A stretch of DNA of 64,000 nucleotides. Source: Schmidtea polychroa (Eukaryota). Location: assembly GCA_044892525.1 (NCBI GenBank), contig CM097887.1, forward strand, positions 121,870,397-121,934,396, in the 5' to 3' direction. This document shows, piece by piece, positions 49,041 to 63,370 of the stretch (the first letter of the stretch is position 1; each line of letters opens with the position of its first letter). The notes beneath the pieces were generated by a model, which saw only the letters and a program-made list of their open reading frames with translations, was not told the DNA's origin and searched no databases. The position numbers were made by a program, and so were the translations under genes.

Positions 49041-50903
49041 TCATAATTTCTCAATGACGACAGCCCAATTGCCCGAATCGTACCAGGAATCAACGAGCTT
49101 GACACCGTCAACCGTTCCACAGAGATTCTCCAATTCATCTTGCTGAAACAAATGATAATATCTGATGAGAACTTGTTCAGTCTGGCCGGGATTGTCTGTT
49201 GATTTATTGCACCAGGGCACCAGCATATCATTGGCTGTGAATTCGGTCCTATTCAGGTGGACAGGCAACGGCAAATCTTCATTACTGCCGGCTTCCAATA
49301 CCGCCTTAGGATCAATCGATTTCTTGTTCAGATATTTTGACTTGATGCCGTCCTTGTGTTGCTGTTGCGCCCAAACATAAATCAATCCCGTGCCAGATTT
49401 CCTAAGCAATTTCACCATTTTCTCCACAGCTTCCTTGCGTCGATCGGCAGTGCTGAGATGATGCAGAACAGCAATCGAAATGAAATAATCACAACAGCCG
49501 GCTCGATATGGCAATTGTCGGCAATTCGATTGCAACGTATCGATCCTGTGGGAATCAGCGGCGATCCTGCAAAGATTCCCACTCGAATCCGATCCCAATA
49601 GGAATCCTCGTGCGAGAATTGCCGGGAAATATTTCCCATTGCCACAGCCGATATCAGCACCGATGCTGCCGATTGGCTGGTTGGTGATGAATTGGCGCAC
49701 TTTTGGCCACATCGAGTGCCGGGTGGAACTGAAATGCTCAGCGATTTTCTCATAAACCTGATGGACGAATTGCTGTTCAAGTTGACTCGGTGGTAAATTC
49801 CCGTTGGAATTCCTGTTGATATCGCAATTTTCCGGCCATTGGCAAGTGCAACCTCGAGTCGGTTTGATCTGTCGGAATGTCAGCGAAATTCTCAAATCTC
49901 TTTGGCGTTTTTCAAAATGATTTTCATTGGGGAAATAAATCAAATCGGATTTCCTTGCTGCGATTCCATGCTTCCATAAAAATCGGGATTCTCCGCTCAT
50001 TATGCAAATGGATCTGGATTTGATATCGACGTTGGTGTGTTGATTCGATTTGGAATTAATCCATTCCATTATTATGTCGGAATTGAGACTGAATGAAATG
50101 ATTTCATCGGTAAACACAGAATGAGTATCGGTATGAGATGGGATACCGTCACCGGGTTGATAAATATTTACGGTTAATTGATTAAATGATTGATAAGATT
50201 TATTTCTGAAATTCGACAATCTTTGTAATAAATCTAAACAATTACTAGGAATCGGCTTATCTGAAAGTGGCTTGGAAAAATCTACTAAATTGTTTTCGTA
50301 ATTGAATTCATATCCAAAATGAATAACAGTTCTCTGTTTTAAACTGCTGTTTTTGTTGGGTTCATTGATCTCTGTGAAATATTCAACGAGACTTATTTCC
50401 TCTTCCTCTAAAACAAAATTCATTTTTAACAAAAAATAATTGAATATATATATATATATACTTGAAATAAAATCTTCAACTATTATTAGCCCATCCGGTT
50501 TAAAAGAATTGAATTGCATTATGTCTGGAGTTAAATTTGATGGAAAATGTTTAACGTAAATACAAAAGGCATTAACAGAAGGTCTCGATTTAAAATCAGG
50601 AGTTGGAATATAAAAAGATTGTAGATTATTTAAAATTCTCTCACTCGCTTCACAATCCGTAGAGATAATAAAAGAGAAATTTTGTTGTGGAGGAGTAATA
50701 ATTTCTTTAATAAAATTCTTAAATTTTGATAAACTTAATTCTAACTCTTGTCTTTTTACATCATTGGCCAAGCCGCCATTAGCAATAATAAGTAATTGAG
50801 TAGGTTCTTCAGAAAATAATATACCAAATTTTTCAGTTAATCTCAATTTAATTTTTTCAATTTTCTTAATATATTTTTTTAATTGACATTTAGAAAAAGA
50901 CAT
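49041..50903 (-). CDS. ALKBH8: Alkylated DNA repair protein alkB homolog 8 (tRNA methyltransferase/hydroxylase); likely ATG at 50903 and a probable 54-nt intron at 50408-50461
   Basis: RRM region (IIANGGL); AlkB domain (TVNIYQPGDGIPSHTD, WKHGI, RISLTFR); Cys cluster CTCQWPENCD; SAM methyltransferase (HFSSTRH, DIGCGNGKY, IAVLHH). Confidence 0.95.
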   Translation of the reverse strand: MSFSKCQLKKYIKKIEKIKLRLTEKFGILFSEEPTQLLIIANGGLANDVKRQELELSLSKFKNFIKEIITPPQQNFSFIISTDCEASERILNNLQSFYIPTPDFKSRPSVNAFCIYVKHFPSNLTPDIMQFNSFKPDGLIIVEDFISSIYIYIFNYFLLKMNFVLEEEEISLVEYFTEINEPNKNSSLKQRTVIHFGYEFNYENNLVDFSKPLSDKPIPSNCLDLLQRLSNFRNKSYQSFNQLTVNIYQPGDGIPSHTDTHSVFTDEIISFSLNSDIIMEWINSKSNQHTNVDIKSRSICIMSGESRFLWKHGIAARKSDLIYFPNENHFEKRQRDLRISLTFRQIKPTRGCTCQWPENCDINRNSNGNLPPSQLEQQFVHQVYEKIAEHFSSTRHSMWPKVRQFITNQPIGSIGADIGCGNGKYFPAILARGFLLGSDSSGNLCRIAADSHRIDTLQSNCRQLPYRAGCCDYFISIAVLHHLSTADRRKEAVEKMVKLLRKSGTGLIYVWAQQQHKDGIKSKYLNKKSIDPKAVLEAGSNEDLPLPVHLNRTEFTANDMLVPWCNKSTDNPGQTEQVLIRYYHLFQQDELENLCGTVDGVKLVDSWYDSGNWAVVIEKL

Positions 50904-51116
50904 GCTTGAAAGATTTCTATATTTGAAATTAATATATTGTAAATAGGAATATTTAAACAAACGTCAAGTTCATTAGCAAATTAAAATCACTCATTTAAAT
51001 AATTTGATTCACAAAATAGAATATATTTTAATTTTCAAATGTGAAACATAATTTTGATTAAAAAAATAACTCGTTTTTCAATTTATTTTAAAATTTTAAC
51101 TATTTAATATCTAAAT

Positions 51117-53400
51117 CAGTGGTGTCCAACCGAAATTGGTTACTGGGCCAAAATAAAAAATAAAAATATAATGTGGGCCGCACGTATTTATTTATTATAA
51201 AAAATTTATACAAACTAAATTATATTTTACATATACATACATATTACTTAATGTGAAACTTGTTTTTCAATTTTTTCTGATAATTTTTTTATGTCCACAG
51301 GTATTTTCGAAGTTGAACATCGTAATTGGTCTTTTAAATTTTCATCAGTTAATCTATTACGACTTTTACATTTAACAATCTTTAATTTTGAAAAAAAAGA
51401 TTCGCAAAGATACGTGGTCCCCATTGCAGCTGTAACGCTTATCGCTAGTTTTCTTAGATTAGGAAATTTATCATTGCATTGTATTTTTTTATAAAACTGA
51501 ACTTTATCATTGGCTTCAAACATATATTTTAATTCAGAAGATGACTGGAGATCTATTAACTCCATTTGCAAATTTGTTGGAGCTGATTCCACAACAATGT
51601 CAAATGGACATAGGAAAATATTAAATATATTCTCATATTTCTTAAAATATGAAAATCTCTCCTGAAATTCTTGTAGTAAATTGGTAATTTCTTGTCCATA
51701 TTTAGAAAAATCTTTTTTGTCACAATTAAATATATGTAATAATGGAAAGTGGATAGAATTTTTTGATTTTAATTGACTTTCATAAAGTTTCAGTTTTGTT
51801 ATGAATGCTTTTATATTTCCATAACAGTCTGTGATTAACTTGTTTTCACCTTGAAGCTGCCTATTTAGTTCGTTTAATTTCATAGTAATATCTGTAAGGA
51901 AACATAAATCCAAAAGCCACTGCTCATCATATAATTCAGGGACATTTTGGTCATTTTCATTCATAAAAATTCCAATCTCTTCTCTCAAATTCCAAAATCT
52001 TTCTAAACATTTCCCACGACTTAACCAGCGAATTTTCGCATAAAAAAGCAAATCACTGTACTCAGATTCTAGTTCTTGAAGGTAATCTTGAAACTGACGA
52101 TGTTTTAAGGAATTATTTTTTATTGCTTTAACTGTTTTAATAACGACTGACATCACATGGTTCATATCAAATACTTGCGCACATAAATTCTCAAGGTGTA
52201 AAAAACAGTGACAAATAAAAAGGTCAGGAGATAATGAAGCTTTTTCCATGGCATTTCTATAATCAAGAATTAATTTTACGGCTCCAATATTTTTACCGAT
52301 CATTGAGGCTGCACCATCTCTGGTGATTCCAATTAGGTTTGCTAAATTAAGACCATGATCATGTGTGCATTTTACGACAGCTTCTTGTATATTTTTTCCG
52401 GTAGTTGTGCCTTTCAAACTCATAACATCCAGAAGTTCTTCAGTTACACTCATTTCACTATAAAAACCTCGAATAAAAATAGCAAGTTGTGCAGTGTCTT
52501 TAATATCTGTTGTCTCATCCAAAGCCAGTGAGAAATAAACAAACTCTTTAGAAACCATGTCCAGCGTAGAACAAATATCAGTTGAAATGTTATCAATTCT
52601 TCGTGATACAGTTTGATGTGATAGACTAATTTGACCAAAAATCTTAATTTTTTCTGGAATAATTTCTTCAACTGCAGCAATAAGGCATTCTTTGATGTAT
52701 TGACCATCTGAAAAGGGCTTCATTTTTTTCCCAATAATGTGTGATATTCGCATGCTGGCATTAACGATGGCATTAGATTGAATTGTTTGTTTATGAAATA
52801 TATTTCGTTCTGCATTCAGATTTGCTTTAAGTGTATCTAATTTCACTTTTCGTTCGTCTTTAGTATATTTTTTATAATCATCATGTTTTTGTTCAAAATG
52901 TCGTCTCAAATTATATGATTTTAATATTGAGGTAGATTGACGACAAATTAAACATATAGCGTTTTCCTTCACCTGCGTGTAAAAATATAAATTTTCCCAT
53001 TCAATTTGAAATTGTCTGTTTTCATCTTCAAATTTTCTTTTTTTATTCTTATGTTAGATGATGAGGGTAGGCCCATCACTACATTTACCCTAGACAAATA
53101 CTACAGGACAGGGCCCAAAAAATATAGAGTAAATGTGTACGCCGAAGAGCGCAGATAGATAAATATTCCAACAAACAACCCAATTTTAAGCAAATCAATT
53201 CAACCCAAAGACAACCCAGCAATCTGAAAACTGACTAAATCGTCGAGCAAACTATGCATATTCTATCTTATCAACAATTGTGTAAATATAATTGACTATT
53301 CTATCTTATTAACAATTGTGACAATCCATGTATATTTTATCTTATTTTCGGTCTGAATACTTATATGTATATTTTATCTTATTTTCCGTTTGAATATTTA
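51117..53400 (-). mobile_element. hAT (Buster/SPIN/GTF2IRD2-like) DNA transposon; only one terminus found
   Basis: Terminus CAGTGGTGTCCAACC at 51117, preceded by atcTAaat (central TA, as Buster elements prefer); full transposase ORF; the other TIR is not seen before the gypsy LTR. Confidence 0.8.
51248..53076 (-). CDS. hAT transposase with BED-like Zn finger; intact apart from a 1-nt frameshift in an A7 run near the N-terminus
   Basis: KRKFEDENRQFQIEW...CLIC...NLRRH..H; catalytic FSLALDETTD, TRDGAASM, CFLH, RWLSRG, TYLCESFFS. The upstream ATG (about 53076) joins this frame if the A-run is A8. Confidence 0.85.
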
Positions 53401-54121
53401 TGTAGAAGGTTAATATTTTATCGGGTGTATGTATTTAATAGATTTTATTAGTTAACATCTTAATTATATACAAGGGAAAAATATTCTAATAATTTTAATT
53501 TGATATTTCAAATTAATAATAATAAATTTCAAAAATTCAATTTTTAATTGTAAACTTCAATTAATTGAATCTCTAGATTTTATTTTTTTAGAACAGTTGG
53601 TTTAGAACAGCTGGGAAATTTCAACAGTAATAACAACACTTTAAATAAATAATCAATTTTAGAATAAGAAAATAAAACTAGAAAATAATAATAATCTTAA
53701 GAAAATAATAATCAATTAAATTTTAAGTAGGTAAATTAACAACAGCTGCCCGCAAAAAATAGTATAAATAGCGACAAAAAATTAGTTTTAGTCGCCCAAA
53801 AATAGCGCAAAGATTTTATATTTGAAGGTAAATCCTGAGGATAATTCAATCATTTGAATCAGCACAAAACGATTCACAAATAGTAAAAGCTTACGAAGAT
53901 ACAACACGCACACACAACAAATAACAATATATATACTTCTTTTTGCACGCATTTTAGTTGAAGCAATTGATAAACAAGTACCAACTTTTTCAGAATTGTA
54001 ACTGGATTTTATTTGGTAAATTTTATATTCAATACATTTTATTACATATACATTTGTCTTTGTTTTGATATATATAAGAACCAGTAAGTTGAGTGTTCCC
54101 GATTAACGAGACCTCAACATT

Positions 54122-54139
54122 TGGTGCCGCGAACCGGGA
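54122..54139 (+). promoter_or_regulatory. Primer-binding site (tRNA-Phe-like, inferred)
   Basis: TGGTGCCGCGAACCGGGA two nt after ...CAACA; resembles the complement of eukaryotic tRNA-Phe 3' ends (TGGTGCCGAAACCCGGGA) with several differences. Confidence 0.65.
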
Positions 54140-54359: not shown

Positions 54360-57300
54360 ATGAATAATAATAATAATAATTACATAAAAATTTTACCAGT
54401 AGAACCATATAGAGGAGAGCCTGAAAAGTTCGACGATTTTTTCACTGAGATCGCTCAGTATGCAGAAGCTTGCGGGTGGACACCTGATGAGTTAAAAATG
54501 AGAATACCACTATATTTAAAAGGTTATGCGTTACAGGCATACAATAACTTAGAATGTAAAGGAAATAATTTTGAGCAACTCGTAAGATATCTGAGAGCAT
54601 AAATAGTAATCGATAGCGATTTACAAAAGATAAACGTTCAAAAATTTAGAAACAGATATCAGGGTACTAGAGAATCAGTTGGTGAATATGTATATACAAT
54701 TACGGAGTTAGCGAAAAAAGCATTTGGTGCAGGGGAGCACACAGCAAAATTAATTGAGGATCAGTTTTGGAATGGTATACAAAAATATTTATATAAAGCA
54801 CTAATTATGGTAGAATATGGTAATTTAAACGAATTAGTTCATAAAGCTAAGCGTATAGAAGCAATACAACGAGATAGATTTAGTTCACATGTAGATGCAA
54901 TGGAAATCCAAAAACCCATAGAGGTAAAATCTGAGTTGGGTAAGTCAGATGACAACATCCCCTGGGAGGAGATGAAACAACTATATTTGAACTTTGTAAA
55001 AAATAGACGAAGGGTAAGCCCGAGTCCAGATAGAAGTCAATCGCCTGAAAACAGGAGAAGGTTTGACAATGTGAGAAATAGAAATTTTGAGAATAGAAAC
55101 AATAGAAATACTTTCGATAGAGACAATCGTTATGAATATAATAGAAATAATTATACGAGAGATAATAGAGTCGATTTTAGTAGAAATAATTTGAGAAATA
55201 ATAAATATGATAGAAATAATAGACACGATAATAGAGATAATACAAATGAATTGAGACGTAGACAGACAAGTCCATATAGACAGAATTCATACAGAGAAAG
55301 GCGAGGGAGCCCTTATAATAATGATGGTAGAGATAAAGTAAATTTTAATGGACAAATCAAATGTTATAACTGCCAGAAATATGGTCACTTAGCTAAAGTA
55401 TGCAATAATGCGCGAAGCGAATCGCCTAATAGAGTGAGATTTAAAAATGAGCCTGAGATAAAACAGATTAATAGTGCTGAGTTGATATCAGCTAATGATG
55501 AAATAAACAGTTTGAGGGAGGAATTAAAAGAATTTAAAACTCAATATGGGAGACTTATTGAGAGGAAGTTAGAAATGTCATTAAATGAGTTTCAGTGTTT
55601 TACCAATGATGTAGATATAGATAATGATGAGTTTCGTGAAGCAAGAGAAGCGGATGAGAAATTTCTTGCAGAAACAAATAGATGTAAAGAGTTAAAAGAA
55701 GAATTGAAAGAGACATTAGAAAAATGGCCTTATGATGATAATGAGACATTGCGTATAATAAATAGAGTTCAAGTCGAAGGAATTGACTTAGAATATTTGA
55801 GAAATTTGATACCACTAATGGTAAAGAGACAAAATATGACAAGAGTATTTGAATTAGAAATAGAATTGAAAGAAATGATAAAATGCTATGGTGAATTTGT
55901 GAGAAAAAATCAGAAATTACATGAGTCATTAAATATAACTATTGAGGCAAAGGACCTTTCGAGATTACTTATGCGTAGTACAGGGGTACATGTTTGCACA
56001 AAAGTGAATAAAGTGAAACAGATGGCTAGAGCCAATTGGCCCGAGAAATTGGGAGATAATGATAAAGTAAAACTGTATTTTAACGGTGTAGAAATGATGA
56101 ATAATGAATATATAATTGACTATGGGGTAAATGTTATTGATAACAATATTATTTCAGCCGTAATAGAAAGGCAAGAAAGTAAACAAGTGGATACACCAAC
56201 TCCATCAGTAGAATTGAGTATAAACGATGAAAATGACTACGACAAATTATTTAGATTGTGGGATGCTTCTTCAGGAGGGGCAATGAGGTCACCAACAGCT
56301 AGCGAGGAAATCTTGAAACCTATCGATACTAAATATGATAATTTACATGAGACAATAGAAAGAATTGCGAAACAAGCAAATATGCAGGATGCAGATACGA
56401 TGAGACGAGGTAGGGGAAGGCCTCGAAAATCGGAAATAGCCGAAAAGTCAGATGACAGAAAGGCAGCAGAGCGTTTAAGAGATATTGCAAATAATATGAG
56501 ACAGGAAGTTCCAAAAAATCAGGATAATGACAAAGACATAAAAATGATAATGGAGTTAGTTAAAGCAATGAATATGAGACGATTTCCGGAAGCAAAACCA
56601 TCAGCACTAATAGAAAATATAGTTAAAAAGATTAAATTAATGGAAAAAGAGATTAGAGAATTGAGTGCAGAGGAAGCAAATGAAGAGACAGTGTTAAAGA
56701 TACTATTTACAACAGGAGTTAATCGAGATAAAGTGATTACGGCAATGGCATATTTAATAGCAAGATACAAGAAACTTTTGCGATTGAATCCAAAGAATCA
56801 GATAGAAAATATTGCTAAAATGATATATAATAAATTAAAAATAGATGCTATGCCATGGATAAAATTAAAAGGAGGATGGAAAATACTGTATGATGAGAGC
56901 CTAATCGAAGGTGTTAAGGAAAGCGTAGGAGACAATATTAATGTAGAAATAGATGATGCGGAGGAGACAGTAAAAAATCTAGTAAATAAAACAACTACGA
57001 GACCGAGTCAAAAAGAAAGAAAGTCGACAATGTCAATAGTAATTATAGTAATAACGTTATTGTTAGATCTGATAAAAGGAAATAATGCGATCATAGCGTA
57101 TGACTGTCAGAATCCTAAGTGGGGACAGAAATATTCATTATTAGATGTAGAGAATTGCCCAGAGGCTAATCCAACAAAACTAATTGTTGCAGATCCAAAG
57201 ATTTTTCACATATATCAAGAGTCTGACTTCATTCACACTGAGGCAGGAGAGTGTATCGTTAAATATTCAGAGGAAAGTTTTGTATGTAATAAAATAGCGA

Positions 57301-60300
57301 GAACAATATTAACTCCAACATGGGCACCAGAAGCGATAATAATAGCACCAATCGAATGTGAAAATGCATTTAAGACAAAAAAGATAAAAACGCCAGATGG
57401 ATTTGAGTTAAATGCTCAGGTAGGAGCACGAGTAAGGCAATTAGTAAATGTCGTTGGATGGTCATCAACAGGAGGATATTGTGAAGAAGGAACGTATAAA
57501 ATATGGGGACATGTAGCAGACAATATTGTAGTAAGACGACAATATTATATTGAATTAAGGAAATTCAAGGCGTCATTTGATAGTTCATCAAAGAAAATGA
57601 TGACACATAAGTTCTGCACATTAGATGAGACAAGCTGTGATACAGGCGAGTCAATGATCATATACAAAGTAAATAAATATGAATGCCATCTAACTAAACT
57701 AAAGACATTGAAATTCAGAACAATACGAGGTAAACAGTTTACGGATATGGAATCCAAAAACATTAAAGATCAAAAACGACGAGCAACGATAATTCAAGAG
57801 AGAGATACACCAACGATATATATGTCAGATTCTGAAACAGAAGCGATGAGATTCGTGGGGAAAGGTGAAAGTATCAAATGCGGAAAAGCAGTTATACAAA
57901 CAAATTATGAAGGAATTTATATCAGCGGAAGTGAAATTAAAGAGGCAAAATCGAAAATAGATAAATTCGATGTCAAGCTAGCGTCATATTTTAATAATAA
58001 AATCGACTACTTTTATCATCATCAGTTAGTACAATTGGACAAAGTATATCAAGCAACTATTGCAAACGATTGTAAACTTAACAGAGAAATTTTAAGAACA
58101 AAGATGGCGGTTGCAGTCACAAACCCAGATTTGATGGCACCAATTTTATTTGCAGAAAAAGGGACATTTGCAAGAGTCGTCGGTGAAGTGATACAAACAT
58201 TTCAGTGCAAACCGGTTAGCGTATCTTTAGCAACGAATAATAAGTGCACAAACGAACTGCCAGTAGTGTATAAAGGAGAAACTGTGTACCTCCAACCAAT
58301 AACAAGGATATTAACAGATAAAGACTATGTTCCGAGAAAAATTGATAAATGTACTAATCTATTGGATCCATTATACAAAATAAATGATGATATGTGGATT
58401 ACAATGTCAGATAGAAAAGAAGCGACTAAACCACAAAAACTAGAACTAACTGAACTTGAGAAAAAGTTAGAATTTCAGGAAGTCAACGAAATGGATAACA
58501 ATGGGATGTATACGAGAGAGGCGATAGAGAGCGCCAGAAAACATATGTTATTTCCTCATGAAAAAGAAAAAGTTCTTTCTATCATGGTAAACAAAATCAT
58601 CGAAAATAGTTATGGAGGGAATTACAACTTTGATGTATTATTATCAAAAGAGCACTTCAAGAAAGTTGTGTATAGAGTATTATACAGCATATGGGGATAT
58701 TTTGCGATTCTCGGAAATACGTTTTCCACTATATTGGGTATATATTATACAGTAGCACTATTGAAAATGATTTGCTCATCACTAGTTTCGTTAAGACAAC
58801 TGAGACAAGTTTTTGGTAATTCATATAAAATGATAGCATGTTTATGTCCATTCATAGCCAAATATTTGATCACTGCGAGGCACGATAAGGAAATCAAACG
58901 GATGAAAAGTCGAAGGGAAGAGGGTGAAATGATGATCACCAATGAGAAAGAGGACGATACAAACAGATCAGAAAATACTGAGCAACCACAGATTGGGTTA
59001 TATGATAATCAAAGAGAACAATTGACAGAATTGAGAAATAATATTGAAATTAGAATCCCAGGTGAAAATGGTAATTGTCATTGTGTTCCAAGGAAAACTT
59101 ATGGATGTTACGGGTTAGAACTTGACGATATATTAGAAGGGTTAAATGAAGCAAGGCCTAAATTACAAATAGTGATAAATGATACGATAATAAAGGCATT
59201 ATGTGACACAGGAGCAGCAGCTTCTATGATTCGTGAAGATCAGTTAACCGGAAACCAAAAGAAAAATATCGTGAGCACAAGAGATAGAGTAATTTCATTA
59301 TCATCACATTACATACCATTAAAAGGAGATATCGAATTAACAGTCCACTTTTCGGATCAAGTGGTTGAACATGTCTTCAAGGTAGTAGCAGAATGTAAAT
59401 GCGTATGTGTCCTTGGGATGGACATACTCAAAAAGTTAAAAAACTGTGTAATCGATTTAACGGATAGTACAGTCAAACGGAAGGCAATATATCAAGACGC
59501 AAGATTTACTGAGGTAATTGCATTAGAGACATTTGAACTAGAGTATCAAAGTGATCATATAATTCCAGTAAAAGTTAATGTTAAAAGTGAGGACACTTTC
59601 ATTTTCGAGCCTGAAACGGCAATATCACGAGATCATAACGTAATGTTAACAGACGAGTGTGTAATTCCAAATAATGGGATAATTCCAATAAGAATCGCGA
59701 ATTACGAAAGAAATAAAGTAAAAATTCATAAAGGTACAAAATTGGGAAAGTTGTTCAAAGGTGAATTAGAGCAAACATTTGAAGTATGTGAGATGTCGAT
59801 GACGAAGGATGTCAGTGAAAGAATGGTCGAACAGAGTAGAGCGAATAATATCAAATTTTATGATAAAATTAAAATAAATAATAATTATCTAAATGAAACA
59901 CAACAACTACAACTACAAATATTACTTGACGAATACAGTGATGTTTTTGCAAAACACGAATTTGATTTAGGAGATACTGACATTATCAAACATGTAATCG
60001 ATACAGGGAATGCTAGACCAATAAAACAGAGACCCTATAGTGTACCATATAAACTGAGGGAGGAAATAAAACGACAAATTAAAGAATTAAAAGAGACAGT
60101 TAGAAAGAAAGACGGGGAAATTCGAATGTGCATTGATTATCGTAAATTAAATGATGTAACAGTAAAAGACTCATACCCATTCCCAAAAGCACAAGAACAA
60201 TATGATAAACTTAGAGATACTAAATATTTCACAGTAATAGATGCAAATAAAGGCTACATGCAAATTCAAATGGAAGAGGGGGATGCGGAAAAGACAGCTT

Positions 60301-62966
60301 TTGTGATAGAAGACGGTTTATATGAATATAAAAGATTACCTTTTGGGTTAACTAATGCGCCAGCAACATTTCAACGTTTAATGAATACAGTATTAGTAGA
60401 CGTACAACATTGCACAGTATATATGGATGATATATTAATTTCATCAAAAACATTTGAGGAACATCTAAAAGATATAGCTAACGTACTAGAAAGATTAAGA
60501 AAAGCAAAAATCAAAATAAAACCCACTAAGTGTAAATGGGCAGAACCTTCAGCATTATTCTTAGGACATATAGTTACAGTAGATGGTATAATACCTAATC
60601 CCGATAAAATTGAAGTAGTTAAAAAATTCCCAGTTCCAAAAACATTACAACAAGTACAGGGATTTTTAGGTCTCACAGGATATTATCGTAAATTCATACA
60701 AGATTATGCAAAAATAGCAGCACCACTAATTGAGTTAACAAAAGGAGTCAAAACAAAGGGAGAGAGTAAAGGAGTGTTAATAGTACAAGAGATTAACGAT
60801 AAAACTAAAAAGCCACAAAGGAAATGGAAAGATGAACACCAAAAAGCCTTTGATCAACTAAAAGAAAAATTAATAACAGCACCGATACTAAGATACCCAG
60901 ACTTTAAAAAACAGTTCATTGTCATGACAGACGCCAGCGGGAAGGCCGTAGGGGCAGTCTTAGGACAAGAAGAGGAAAAGGGTAAAGATTATGTAATAGC
61001 TTATGCAAGCAAAACATTAAAAGGAGCACAGATTAGGTACTCAACAATTGAGAAAGAATGTTATGCTATAGTTTTTGCATTAAAACAATTTAAACCATAC
61101 ATATATGGAACTGAAGTAGTAATTAGAACAGACCATAAGCCATTAGAAGGGTTATGGAAACATAAAGATACATCCAGTAGACTGTTAAAATGGGCAATGA
61201 AAATACAAGACATGCACATAAAGATTGCATATAAACCAGGTAGAATAAATAGGAATGCAGATGCATTATCACGAATTCCAGAGTTAGGAGCACTAGAAGT
61301 TTTTGCATTAGTAACCGAAAAACCAATAGAAATATATGAGGAACAAATGAAAGATCCAGAACTCTTCAAGATAAGAGAAGAAATAAAAAAGGGAACTAAC
61401 CAAAAGTATAAAATCTGTAAGAAGTTAATTGTTATTGAGGATTTTAGCGGTAAACAATTAATAGTAGTACCACAAAGATTAAGACAAATTCTTCTGTTAC
61501 AATACCACGATGGTGCTTTAGGAGGTCATTTATCAAGTAGGAAAACAGCAAGCAGATTGACGCAAAAATATTATTGGGACGATTTGAAAAAGGATGTCAA
61601 GAGATGGTGTAATGCATGCACAATATGCGCAACTAGAAAAAATACAGGAACAAAAACTAAAGCACCTTTACATCCAATCCCAGCTACAACATCACTAATG
61701 GAATTGTGCGCAATGGATTTTTTGTGTAAACTACTCACAACAATTAAGGGGAATAAGCACATACTAGTTTTTAGCGATTATTTTACAAAATGGGCAGAGG
61801 CATTTCCTACAAAAGATGAAACAGCAGAAACAGTAGCTAAATTACTTGTGGAAAAAATAATCTTTAAAATCGGTACACCGAGAAAATTATTAACAGATAA
61901 AGGGAAAAATTTCATGAGTGAAACTATAAAAAGAGTAGCTAACATATTTAACATGCATAAAATCAACACAACAGCATACCACCCTCAGACCGATGGTTTA
62001 GTAGAGAGATTCAATGGGACATTGCTAAGTAGATTAGCTGTGTTTGTGGGAAAAAACCAAAATGATTGGGATGAATACGTTAATCAATGTACATACATCC
62101 ATAATATCACACCAAATGAGACAACGGGATATTCACCATATTTTCTAATGTTCTTAAGAGAGCCTGCGACACCGATTGATACAATTTTTGAGCCTCGAGT
62201 ATCACAATATTTAGATGCACCAGATTATGTAACATTAATGCAAGAGAGATTACAAGAGGTATACAAGGTTGCAAATTTAAAAGTTAAATTCAGACAAGAA
62301 CAATATAAAGCAGATTACGATAAAAATAGCAAACCTCATAATTTTAAAGTGGGAGATAAGGTTAGACTTATGTCTCCACAAGTAGGAAAAGGCAAAACAA
62401 CTAAATTAGCAAGACCATTTAAAGGACCATACGAGGTAGTAAAAGTAATACATGAAAACCTGCATTTACAAAAACATAAAAATGAGGATCCTATAATAGT
62501 ACATGTTAACAGATGCAAATTAGCAGAAACAGAGTTAGTAGAAAAACCACCTCACAAATATGGATTACGATCACAAAAAGCACTGATGATGGCAGCGACA
62601 TTTTTAACAATTATAGGGTTGGGTAAATCAACTGAAGTAGAAAACGAGAACATACACTCAGTAGAATACATGGCTGAAGATATTTTAATCAACATTTCAC
62701 CATATAAAATTAGAGTATATAACTTAAATAAATCACCAATAAGAGACTTGTATCTGGAAACTAGGGATAATATACCCAAACTTATGAAAAAAATTGAAAA
62801 TAGATCAACTAATGAATTTGAAAGAGGGGATAATGTTGAATTCGTTGAATTAGTTGACACATCACAGATAAGGTGCAAAAGACTAAAAACTACTAAAATA
62901 AACAGACTTAGAATAAAAAAACCAAAAAAGAAAAGGTATCAACATCCAGAAAAACAATTACTATAA
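54360..62966 (+). CDS. Gag-Ubl-AT-hook-glycoprotein-Pol polyprotein (one in-frame TAA at 54600-54602; small in-frame RT deletion)
   Basis: ORFs 54327-54602 and 54807-62966 are in the same frame and the interval between them is open. Motifs: CYNCQKYGHLAKVC (55362), RGRGRPRK (about 56405), AYDC (57096), TM at about 58690-58790, DTG (59205), YMDD (60420), TDASG RNase H, HHCC and DDE integrase, GPY. Confidence 0.9.
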
Positions 62967-63370
62967 ATTCAACACCCACACATCCTATATCACAAACGAT
63001 AACGAATATATATAGGAAAACGACATTTAAAGCGGTTAGACAAATATATAAAAAATTAATAATGAAAAATCCAGGACAGTCTGATAGGAAACTGATAAGA
63101 CTACCTACAGGAAAACCGATAGTTATAAATAACTGGAATGAATTACAAGTATTTCAAAAGAAAGCAAGCAAACCACAATGGCCTTTTTATGTAATAGCTA
63201 CAAGTGTAGTATCATTCGCGATCTTAGCAATTGTCACTAGTGTACAAGTTTATAAAAAGTACAAGTGGAAAAGGCAGCGGTATCGGCACCGACTGGTCAA
63301 AGAAGCACCAGGGCATTTTCACTTGGACAAATATATCCCTGGCCAATATACTCTGTCCACACTGGTATAA
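62912..63370 (+). CDS. Thr/Ser-rich stalk plus transmembrane segment, in the -1 frame relative to the polyprotein
   Basis: Frame open from 62912 (VSTSRKTITINSTPTHPISQTITN...) through ORF 63062-63370; TM WPFYVIATSVVSFAILAIVTSVQVY followed by KKYKWKRQRYR. Confidence 0.55.
   Translation, partial: NKKTKKEKVSTSRKTITINSTPTHPISQTITNIYRKTTFKAVRQIYKKLIMKNPGQSDRKLIRLPTGKPIVINNWNELQVFQKKASKPQWPFYVIATSVVSFAILAIVTSVQVYKKYKWKRQRYRHRLVKEAPGHFHLDKYIPGQYTLSTLV

Follow-up and report, generated by a model that had tools for sequence, protein, structure and literature searches.

The 64,000-nucleotide stretch of Schmidtea polychroa DNA analyzed here (contig CM097887.1, positions 121,870,397 to 121,934,396 of the forward strand; hereafter, the window) carries a very young Ty3/gypsy retroelement of about 13.5 kb, whose single Gag-Env-Pol reading frame encodes, in the extension of Gag, a ubiquitin-like domain (Ubl) and an AT-hook-like motif. 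All hallmarks of the Ty3/gypsy group were found, i.e., long terminal repeats (LTRs) of the TG...CA type, a primer-binding site (PBS), a polypurine tract (PPT), a target-site duplication, and protease, reverse transcriptase, RNase H and integrase in this order. One 37-bp indel is the only difference between the 5' and 3' LTRs of the window copy (the single mismatch in their comparison lies outside them, within the three bases that follow), which shows that the insertion is very young. Target-site duplications of 4 bp were present at all 12 paired insertion sites of the family. Gag of the window copy is broken by an in-frame stop codon (54600-54602); the homologous frames are uninterrupted in other copies, and a search of the same genome revealed open frames of approximately 3,050-3,090 codons. 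A sequence-only reading of this DNA had proposed that an integral Ubl recruits ESCRT (endosomal sorting complex that is required for transport) or proteasome factors and that an AT-hook tethers the element to AT-rich chromatin. The structural part of this proposal stood, as the GG-less Ubl is real, under selection and conserved over copies and subfamilies, and the AT-hook-like motif is real and selected but dispensable; the two mechanisms (recruitment in the manner of ubiquitin and AT-rich tethering) are unsupported.

The domains of the polyprotein are arranged in the order: CCHC knuckle, helical block, Ubl, acidic linker, RGRP motif, Bcl-2-like domain, hydrophobic helix and envelope glycoprotein (Env). 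The translation of 55929-56429 matches exactly the Ubl and hook peptides that had been quoted in the sequence-only reading, and they lie in frame in the open reading frame 54603-62966, after the zf-CCHC knuckle. The distance between them, given there as about 80 residues, was counted as 79 residues between ISAVI and RRGRGRPRK. A search of the own genome with the Ubl as a query returned 644 candidates, of which 150 were scored and all 150 matched; the best 96 rows were 91-100% identical. The fetched loci sort into subfamilies A (to which the window copy belongs), B (approximately 60% identity in the Ubl), C (43%), and the degraded D and E.

As a single sequence, the Ubl matched PF11976 at E=0.0065 (16.7 bits, below the 23.8 cut-off), and amongst the aligned relatives PF11976 was found in 16 of 24 and PF00240 in 13 of 24 at E<=1. 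An AlphaFold2 model built from an alignment of 24 element-derived sequences, with no true ubiquitin among them, reached a predicted local distance difference test score (pLDDT) of 85.8 and showed the succession strand-strand-helix-strand-strand-short helix-strand, i.e., a predicted beta-grasp (a single-sequence model, with a pLDDT of 47.5, was not used). Foldseek comparison of this model with PDB gave 10 matches at E<=0.001 (best E=2e-4), and the displayed rows of the top 50 ranks were all ubiquitin-fold proteins or complexes (MUB, ubiquitin, ISG15, SUMO, NEDD8, ATG8, UBX), with 10-21% identity and template modeling scores of 0.53-0.72 by query to ubiquitin-fold chains; in the viral library, mostly ubiquitin-like proteins were matched. 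A profile of 13 element Ubls detected 338 PDB sequences at E<=1, led by ubiquitin chains, ISG15, NEDD8 and BAG6-type ubiquitin-like proteins, and family profiles of the Ubl reached E<=1e-3 to ISG15, NEDD8 and ubiquitin chains. SUMO was absent from the best 60 of these 338 matches, and a closer relationship to SUMO or Rad60 SUMO-like domains than to ubiquitin-type ones was thus not seen there; Foldseek did not discriminate between them. The Ubl profile compared with 1.84 billion representatives found 11 proteins at E<=0.001, namely nine multi-ubiquitin-domain proteins, one repeat artefact (P0003) and one distant metagenomic homolog, P0010. Like ubiquitin, NEDD8, ISG15 and the type II ubiquitin-like proteins, the domain shows the predicted beta-grasp fold and the L-x-F-x-G ... 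L-x-D-Y-G pattern. No GG is present at its end, as had been noticed from the sequence, and so it is not a conjugatable type I protein. We conclude that this is an integral, GG-less domain of the ubiquitin superfamily, whose modeled fold is well supported. In a 15-row Ubl tree only one of the 12 inner branches was starred, and the tree does not name the source host gene.

The conservation and selection check proposed in the sequence-only reading was passed. Each of the 30 close copies examined carries an uninterrupted Ubl. Between subfamilies A and B (60% identity in the Ubl) the proportion of non-synonymous differences (pN) was 0.24 and that of synonymous differences (pS) 0.72 (p=1.8e-10), and pN was also below pS for A-C (p=2e-5) and B-C (p=2e-6), the derived dN/dS values being rough because synonymous sites are near saturation. 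The Ubl is therefore under purifying selection. The A-B identity decreases from 92% in the capsid, through 87% in Env, 83% in the Bcl-2-like domain and 78% in the helical block, to 60% in the Ubl and 55% in the linker; between A and C, the Ubl retains 42% identity, and the linker is mostly deleted, with 21% identity.

One to three Ubls were present in every relative examined. Two were found in each of the sister families F (with a 3334-codon frame) and G (profile-profile probability 96%), one in P0010, and three candidate Ubls in a giant Burro1-like element carrying MATH, TRAF and BIR cargo, for which homology rests on position and on weak Pfam UBX/UBL matches. A probably helical block precedes the Ubl in each lineage (the window subfamilies, F, G and the Burro1-like giant). 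The columns that do not vary among A, B, C and P0010/P0014 belong to the helical block and to the junction side of the Ubl (R60, T64, E72, Y80, N87, H91, H114 and K118 of alignment A9). The idea that this block resembles the TFIIS N-terminal domain was dropped, as no such Pfam match was obtained for eight helical blocks. A search with polyprotein residues 400-800 found no homolog among 3062 candidates of 1532-4878 aa, and a homolog search with P0010 returned only itself and one 98% identical copy.

A separate case of ubiquitin capture was observed in another multi-copy retroelement of this genome (L091-L100, e.g., L091:517-1986 and L092:763-2535 on the minus strand), which is BEL/Pao-like by its Gag motifs, as judged by eye. 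It carries in frame a piece of a Rab-type GTPase, a piece of a proteasome alpha-subunit and a near-perfect di-ubiquitin ahead of Gag. The first ubiquitin unit ends with LRLRGG and the second is diverged; this capture is recent and independent, keeps the GG and the I44 patch, and is possibly more interesting than the Ubl of the window.

The AT-hook-like motif RRGRGRPRK combines the RGRP core with flanking basic residues, as HMGA-type AT-hooks do (PMC11354804). It differs from them in having Gly instead of Pro before the core, in being a single copy, in its PF02178 score (14.6 bits, below the 17.4 cut-off) and in that no AT-rich targeting was seen. When residues 1-830 were shuffled 20,000 times, RGRP[RK] turned up in only 23 of the shuffled sequences, so that its presence is beyond chance. 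Between A and B, the nine codons of the motif differ by 0 non-synonymous and 4 synonymous changes (p=0.004), and the 20-codon block which it opens by 0 and 9, respectively (p=3e-7), which indicates selection on the protein level. The AT-hook call was in this respect borne out, with the binding itself being predicted from the sequence. Of the 30 A loci, 29 keep the RGRP core intact, as do 13 of the 14 B loci, and it was found at the same position in 0 of 8 C loci, 0 of 6 degraded D loci and 0 of 8 F/G loci. The motif recurs in relatives: RTRGRPK lies just upstream of the Bcl-2-like domain in both Burro1-like copies, and P0010 (26% identity over 319 columns, E=1e-17) has RPKGRPRK before its Bcl-2-like domain. 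This recurrence suggests that the motif is ancestral and was lost several times later. It should be stressed that, as a caveat to the loss, subfamily C (L052-L054) has PRGRP in a Ser/Arg-rich Gag region before the knuckle in three of seven loci, which may be a compensation or a matter of chance. The motif probably serves, in an accessory role, as a patch for nucleic-acid binding or nuclear import (of the RNA or cDNA of the element), and several lineages can do without it; AT-hooks acting through RNA were described (PMC11354804).

The remaining features of the locus are collected in Table 1. The sequence-only reading did not mention that the same frame continues, directly downstream of the motif, with a Bcl-2-like domain and then a fusion glycoprotein. 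The profile of the Bcl-2-like domain matches Bcl-2/Bcl-xL at E~1e-5 (Pfam E=7.7e-6 in the region-level scan); the BH2-like W..GGW is retained and the BH1 NWGR is replaced. Multi-copy, apparently intron-containing Bcl-2-family genes, unlike the Bcl-2-like domain of the element, were found at many genomic places (L116-L130; a PF00452 search of the genome gave 909 candidates, of which 150 were scored), perhaps on another mobile element. Two frames follow pol: a small one at 62912-63370 of the window, with a hydrophobic helix and a basic, cytoplasmic-type tail, possibly encodes a small membrane protein, and an accessory frame of about 500 codons inside the element but past the window end (L031:435-1955) shows similarity to ISG20-type exonucleases (E=1.3e-4) and an acidic tail.

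Table 1. Features of the retroelement (positions refer to the window)
Feature	Positions	Strand	Basis or remark
Target-site duplication CTTA, 4 bp	53048..53051	+	second copy after the 3' LTR, L031:2957-2960, past the window end
5' LTR, TG...CA	53052..54119	+	partner 3' LTR at L031:1852-2956, just past the window end
PBS, TGG..., tRNA-like	54122..54139	+	common to family copies
Gag capsid, N-terminal part, up to the in-frame stop	54360..54602	+	
Remainder of the single Gag-Env-Pol frame, 2787 codons	54603..62966	+	
CCHC zinc knuckle; Arg/Asn/Ser-rich region upstream	55356..55403	+	PF00098 E=0.0013
Conserved, probably helical block that immediately precedes the Ubl	55650..55925	+	helicity judged from sequence; alignments; without convincing Pfam match
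Predicted integral ubiquitin-fold (beta-grasp) domain without C-terminal GG	55926..56171	+	AlphaFold2, Foldseek, profiles, selection
Acidic variable linker	56172..56402	+	55% identity to subfamily B; mostly deleted in subfamily C
AT-hook-like motif RRGRGRPRK, opening a 20-codon conserved block	56403..56429	+	shuffles, Pfam, substitution counts
Bcl-2-like domain	56610..56879	+	PF00452 E=1.2e-6, 29.4 bits, below cut-off 31.4
Hydrophobic helix	57024..57080	+	hydropathy scan; likely tail anchor of the Gag extension and Env signal sequence (putative dual role)
Class III fusion glycoprotein of the Monjiviricetes/HSV gB type (HSV, herpes simplex virus)	57036..58988	+	PF24664 E=8e-88
Env transmembrane helix	58731..58787	+	hydropathy scan
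Aspartic protease, reverse transcriptase, RNase H, integrase	59148..61985	+	Pfam

The element interrupts, within its first codons, a transposase gene of the hAT (Spin/GTF2IRD2-like) kind (window 51248-53051, minus strand), the start of which lies past the 3' LTR (L031 from 2957), and many other family-A copies are likewise located inside other transposons, as judged by eye. An ALKBH8-like gene, with 2OG-Fe(II) oxygenase and methyltransferase parts, adjoins this transposon nest (window 49041-50963, minus strand). At L163 and L179-L181, tandem elements with a common LTR (in L163, the PPT lies to its left and the PBS to its right) and two 3' LTRs that share one flank were noticed. Contigs of a sequencing run, which is only guessed to be of RNA, extend over the element; this coverage carries no information on its expression.

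The in-frame position of Env and the Ubl and BCL-2-like domain placed before it assign the window element to the Burro-type, GAG-ENV-POL errantiviruses. For the Burro elements of planarians, Arkhipova and Yushenova described in 2019 a PF11976 domain of the Ubi2/SUMO-like kind, located between MATH and BCL-2, and an Env that lies in frame between Gag and Pol (PMC6431247). The window element shares with Burro/GYPSM1 the single polyprotein, Gag with CCHC knuckle(s), the Ubl before the BCL-2-like domain and the in-frame Env, and differs in its length (13.5 kb versus >30 kb), in the number of codons (~3,050 versus 4,873), and in having one knuckle and one Ubl (PMC6431247). No MATH domain was found in the window polyprotein by Pfam and no BIR was noticed; the set that marks Burro1 proper (>30 kb, MATH, three knuckles, BIR cargo) occurs in a separate family of this genome. 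Six Schmidtea GAG-ENV-POL errantiviruses, HSV/gB-type, of Platyhelminthes, were catalogued by Chary and Hayashi (PMC13524379). The Env segment of one of them, Smed_errantivirus_3, is approximately 83% identical to the window Env (42 differences per 246 residues, counted by eye) with the same Gag-Env-Pol order, the window element being a distinct subfamily, and family F resembles errantivirus_2 (PMC13524379). The architecture is thus already known, and the window element is a new subfamily of described planarian enveloped retroelements. The main text of PMC13524379 holds no occurrence of ubiquitin, Bcl, SUMO or AT-hook, and neither full-text literature searches nor the text of PMC6431247 and PMC13524379 yielded any reference to an AT-hook in such elements; Grohme 2018, Lee 2026 (Dev Cell) or their supplements may note one.

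Both mechanisms offered in the sequence-only reading have some grounds. Ubiquitin fused to Gag can substitute for late domains and drive ESCRT-dependent budding (PMC2958808), and the element resembles these engineered fusions in carrying a GG-less ubiquitin fold C-terminally to Gag. Moreover, PTAP/PSAP, PPxY and YPxL motifs are all missing from polyprotein residues 1-830, and position 44 is still hydrophobic in the window family, so the Ubl might be thought to mimic mono-ubiquitin, recruit ESCRT or proteasome receptors and stand in for a late domain. We regard this as unlikely, since the budding effect needs L8 and I44 (PMC2958808) and the L8-I44-H68-V70 patch is not kept in the element: L8 has disappeared within a loop of variable sequence, H68 and V70 are altered whichever register is taken for the last strand, and the position of I44 is occupied by Tyr in A-E, by Phe in P0010, and by Thr, Lys, Ile, Met or Gln in most Ubls of sister families, being polar or charged in F and G. 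The identity to host ubiquitin and to NEDD8 is only 16%, and K48 and K63 are not retained. The second mechanism, in which the AT-hook would tether the pre-integration complex to AT-rich chromatin and steer insertion there, agrees with the core and basic flanks of the published consensus (PMC11354804), with the selection on the protein level and with the presence of the motif at the same place in the Burro1-like giant and, as KGRP, in P0010. The host flanks of 17 family-A sites (with the motif), 19 family-F sites (without it) and 20 evenly spaced background stretches were compared in this genome of ~70% A+T; two of 30 family-A LTR loci (ends not found), LTRs flanked by the element on both sides and LTRs duplicating a site (one in A, one in F) were dropped. 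The A flanks were not AT-richer than the F flanks at any of seven flank lengths (one-sided p 0.71-0.97), and were GC-richer than the background, i.e., the sign was opposite to the prediction (0.306 versus 0.241 at +/-200 bp, p=0.006; 0.322 versus 0.267 at +/-1.4 kb, p<0.001), in small, non-random samples of best-scoring LTR matches, where A and F differ in integrase and post-insertion selection may bias the result. The GC excess persisted without sites near long open frames (0.312 versus 0.259), and A-tracts next to insertions were not enriched. As the motif is also single, placed on a predicted membrane-tethered fragment and absent at this position in subfamilies C and D and families F and G, such tethering seems very improbable; a role of the hook as a patch for nucleic-acid binding or import is more likely than one in selecting target sites.

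What the Ubl does instead can be proposed from its context. Tentatively, and at odds somewhat below even, we favor a host-derived, permanently built-in and non-conjugated docking module that uses its own surfaces, rather than the I44 patch, and brings host partners to the Bcl-2-like domain at a membrane. The hydrophobic helix preceding Env would insert into the endoplasmic reticulum as the Env signal and would also act as a tail anchor, holding the Gag extension on the cytosolic membrane face; the capsid, helical block, Ubl, hook and Bcl-2-like domain would remain on the cytosolic side unless the element protease frees them. The Ubl, which may form one unit with the helical block, would thereby be placed between the capsid and the membrane, and its partners may be host ubiquitin-pathway or cell-death regulators, as may be the case for the neighboring cargo of the giant relatives (MATH, TRAF zinc fingers and BIR at the genome loci). 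Cargo of the MATH/BIR type in giant planarian relatives was reported previously (PMC6431247). Several points weigh against this reading. The docking role is deduced from context. The Ubl diverges faster than the capsid, Env and Bcl-2-like parts and barely slower than the linker, which would fit a spacer fold too, and the Burro1-like Ubls match the Ubl profile of the window family non-significantly. The invariant Tyr or Phe at position 44 in A-E and P0010 leaves a hydrophobic face, so that the domain has probably retained some sort of binding surface and some binding to ubiquitin receptors may be possible; finally, the activity of the Bcl-2-like domain is uncertain, as BH1 NWGR is missing from its sequence. 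The main rival holds that the helical block and the Ubl build a matrix-like structural layer of the particle, which would bind Gag or ribonucleoprotein of the element itself and connect the capsid with the membrane anchor, no host partner being involved. This rather unlikely alternative accords with the location between the knuckle and the membrane anchor, with the conserved residues at the helix-Ubl junction and with the presence of the module in every lineage examined, and it has an analogy in the Ubl1 of coronavirus nsp3, which binds the nucleocapsid. A copy number varying from one to three and fast sequence divergence would be unusual for a lattice protein, and the neighbors in relatives are host-signaling domains. 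It is also improbable that both features are relics, the one a ubiquitin gene that was captured and survives only as a spacer with a stable fold, the other a basic patch that has no specific function. The fast divergence of the Ubl, the repeated loss of the RGRP motif and the ease with which ubiquitin is captured by retroelements of this genome would agree with it, but the Ubl is retained or duplicated in all lineages despite Env N-termini being only 30-36% identical, the adjacent linker is deleted in C, and the AT-hook block shows no non-synonymous versus nine synonymous changes.

Going beyond the docking module, an ancestral "tegument" cassette that is tethered to the membrane and consists of the helical block, the ubiquitin fold, the RGRP hook, the Bcl-2-like domain and the signal-anchor could be common to the planarian Gag-Env-Pol errantiviruses. 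In it, the ubiquitin fold would have evolved a new Tyr44 surface, specific to the family, with which a host regulator of ubiquitin or cell death is hijacked, and the hook would carry the nucleic acid of the element. We consider this a long shot; if true, it would be the first case of a retroelement Gag in which an effector of the ubiquitin fold is built in and acts together with an AT-hook.

Since 2019 the Ubl of Burro-type elements has been a one-line annotation. To this, the present analysis adds its predicted fold, selection, spread (one to three copies per element) and loss of the classical receptor patch, as well as an AT-hook-like motif that precedes the Bcl-2-like domain and is apparently ancestral. 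The IAP (inhibitor of apoptosis) cargo of Burro1, which is anti-apoptotic, was reported to protect stem cells (cited in PMC13465017), which makes the question of captured modules topical, and the compact, young and multi-copy family described here is easier than the 30-kb Burro1 for studying captured ubiquitin and cell-death modules in planarian retroelements.

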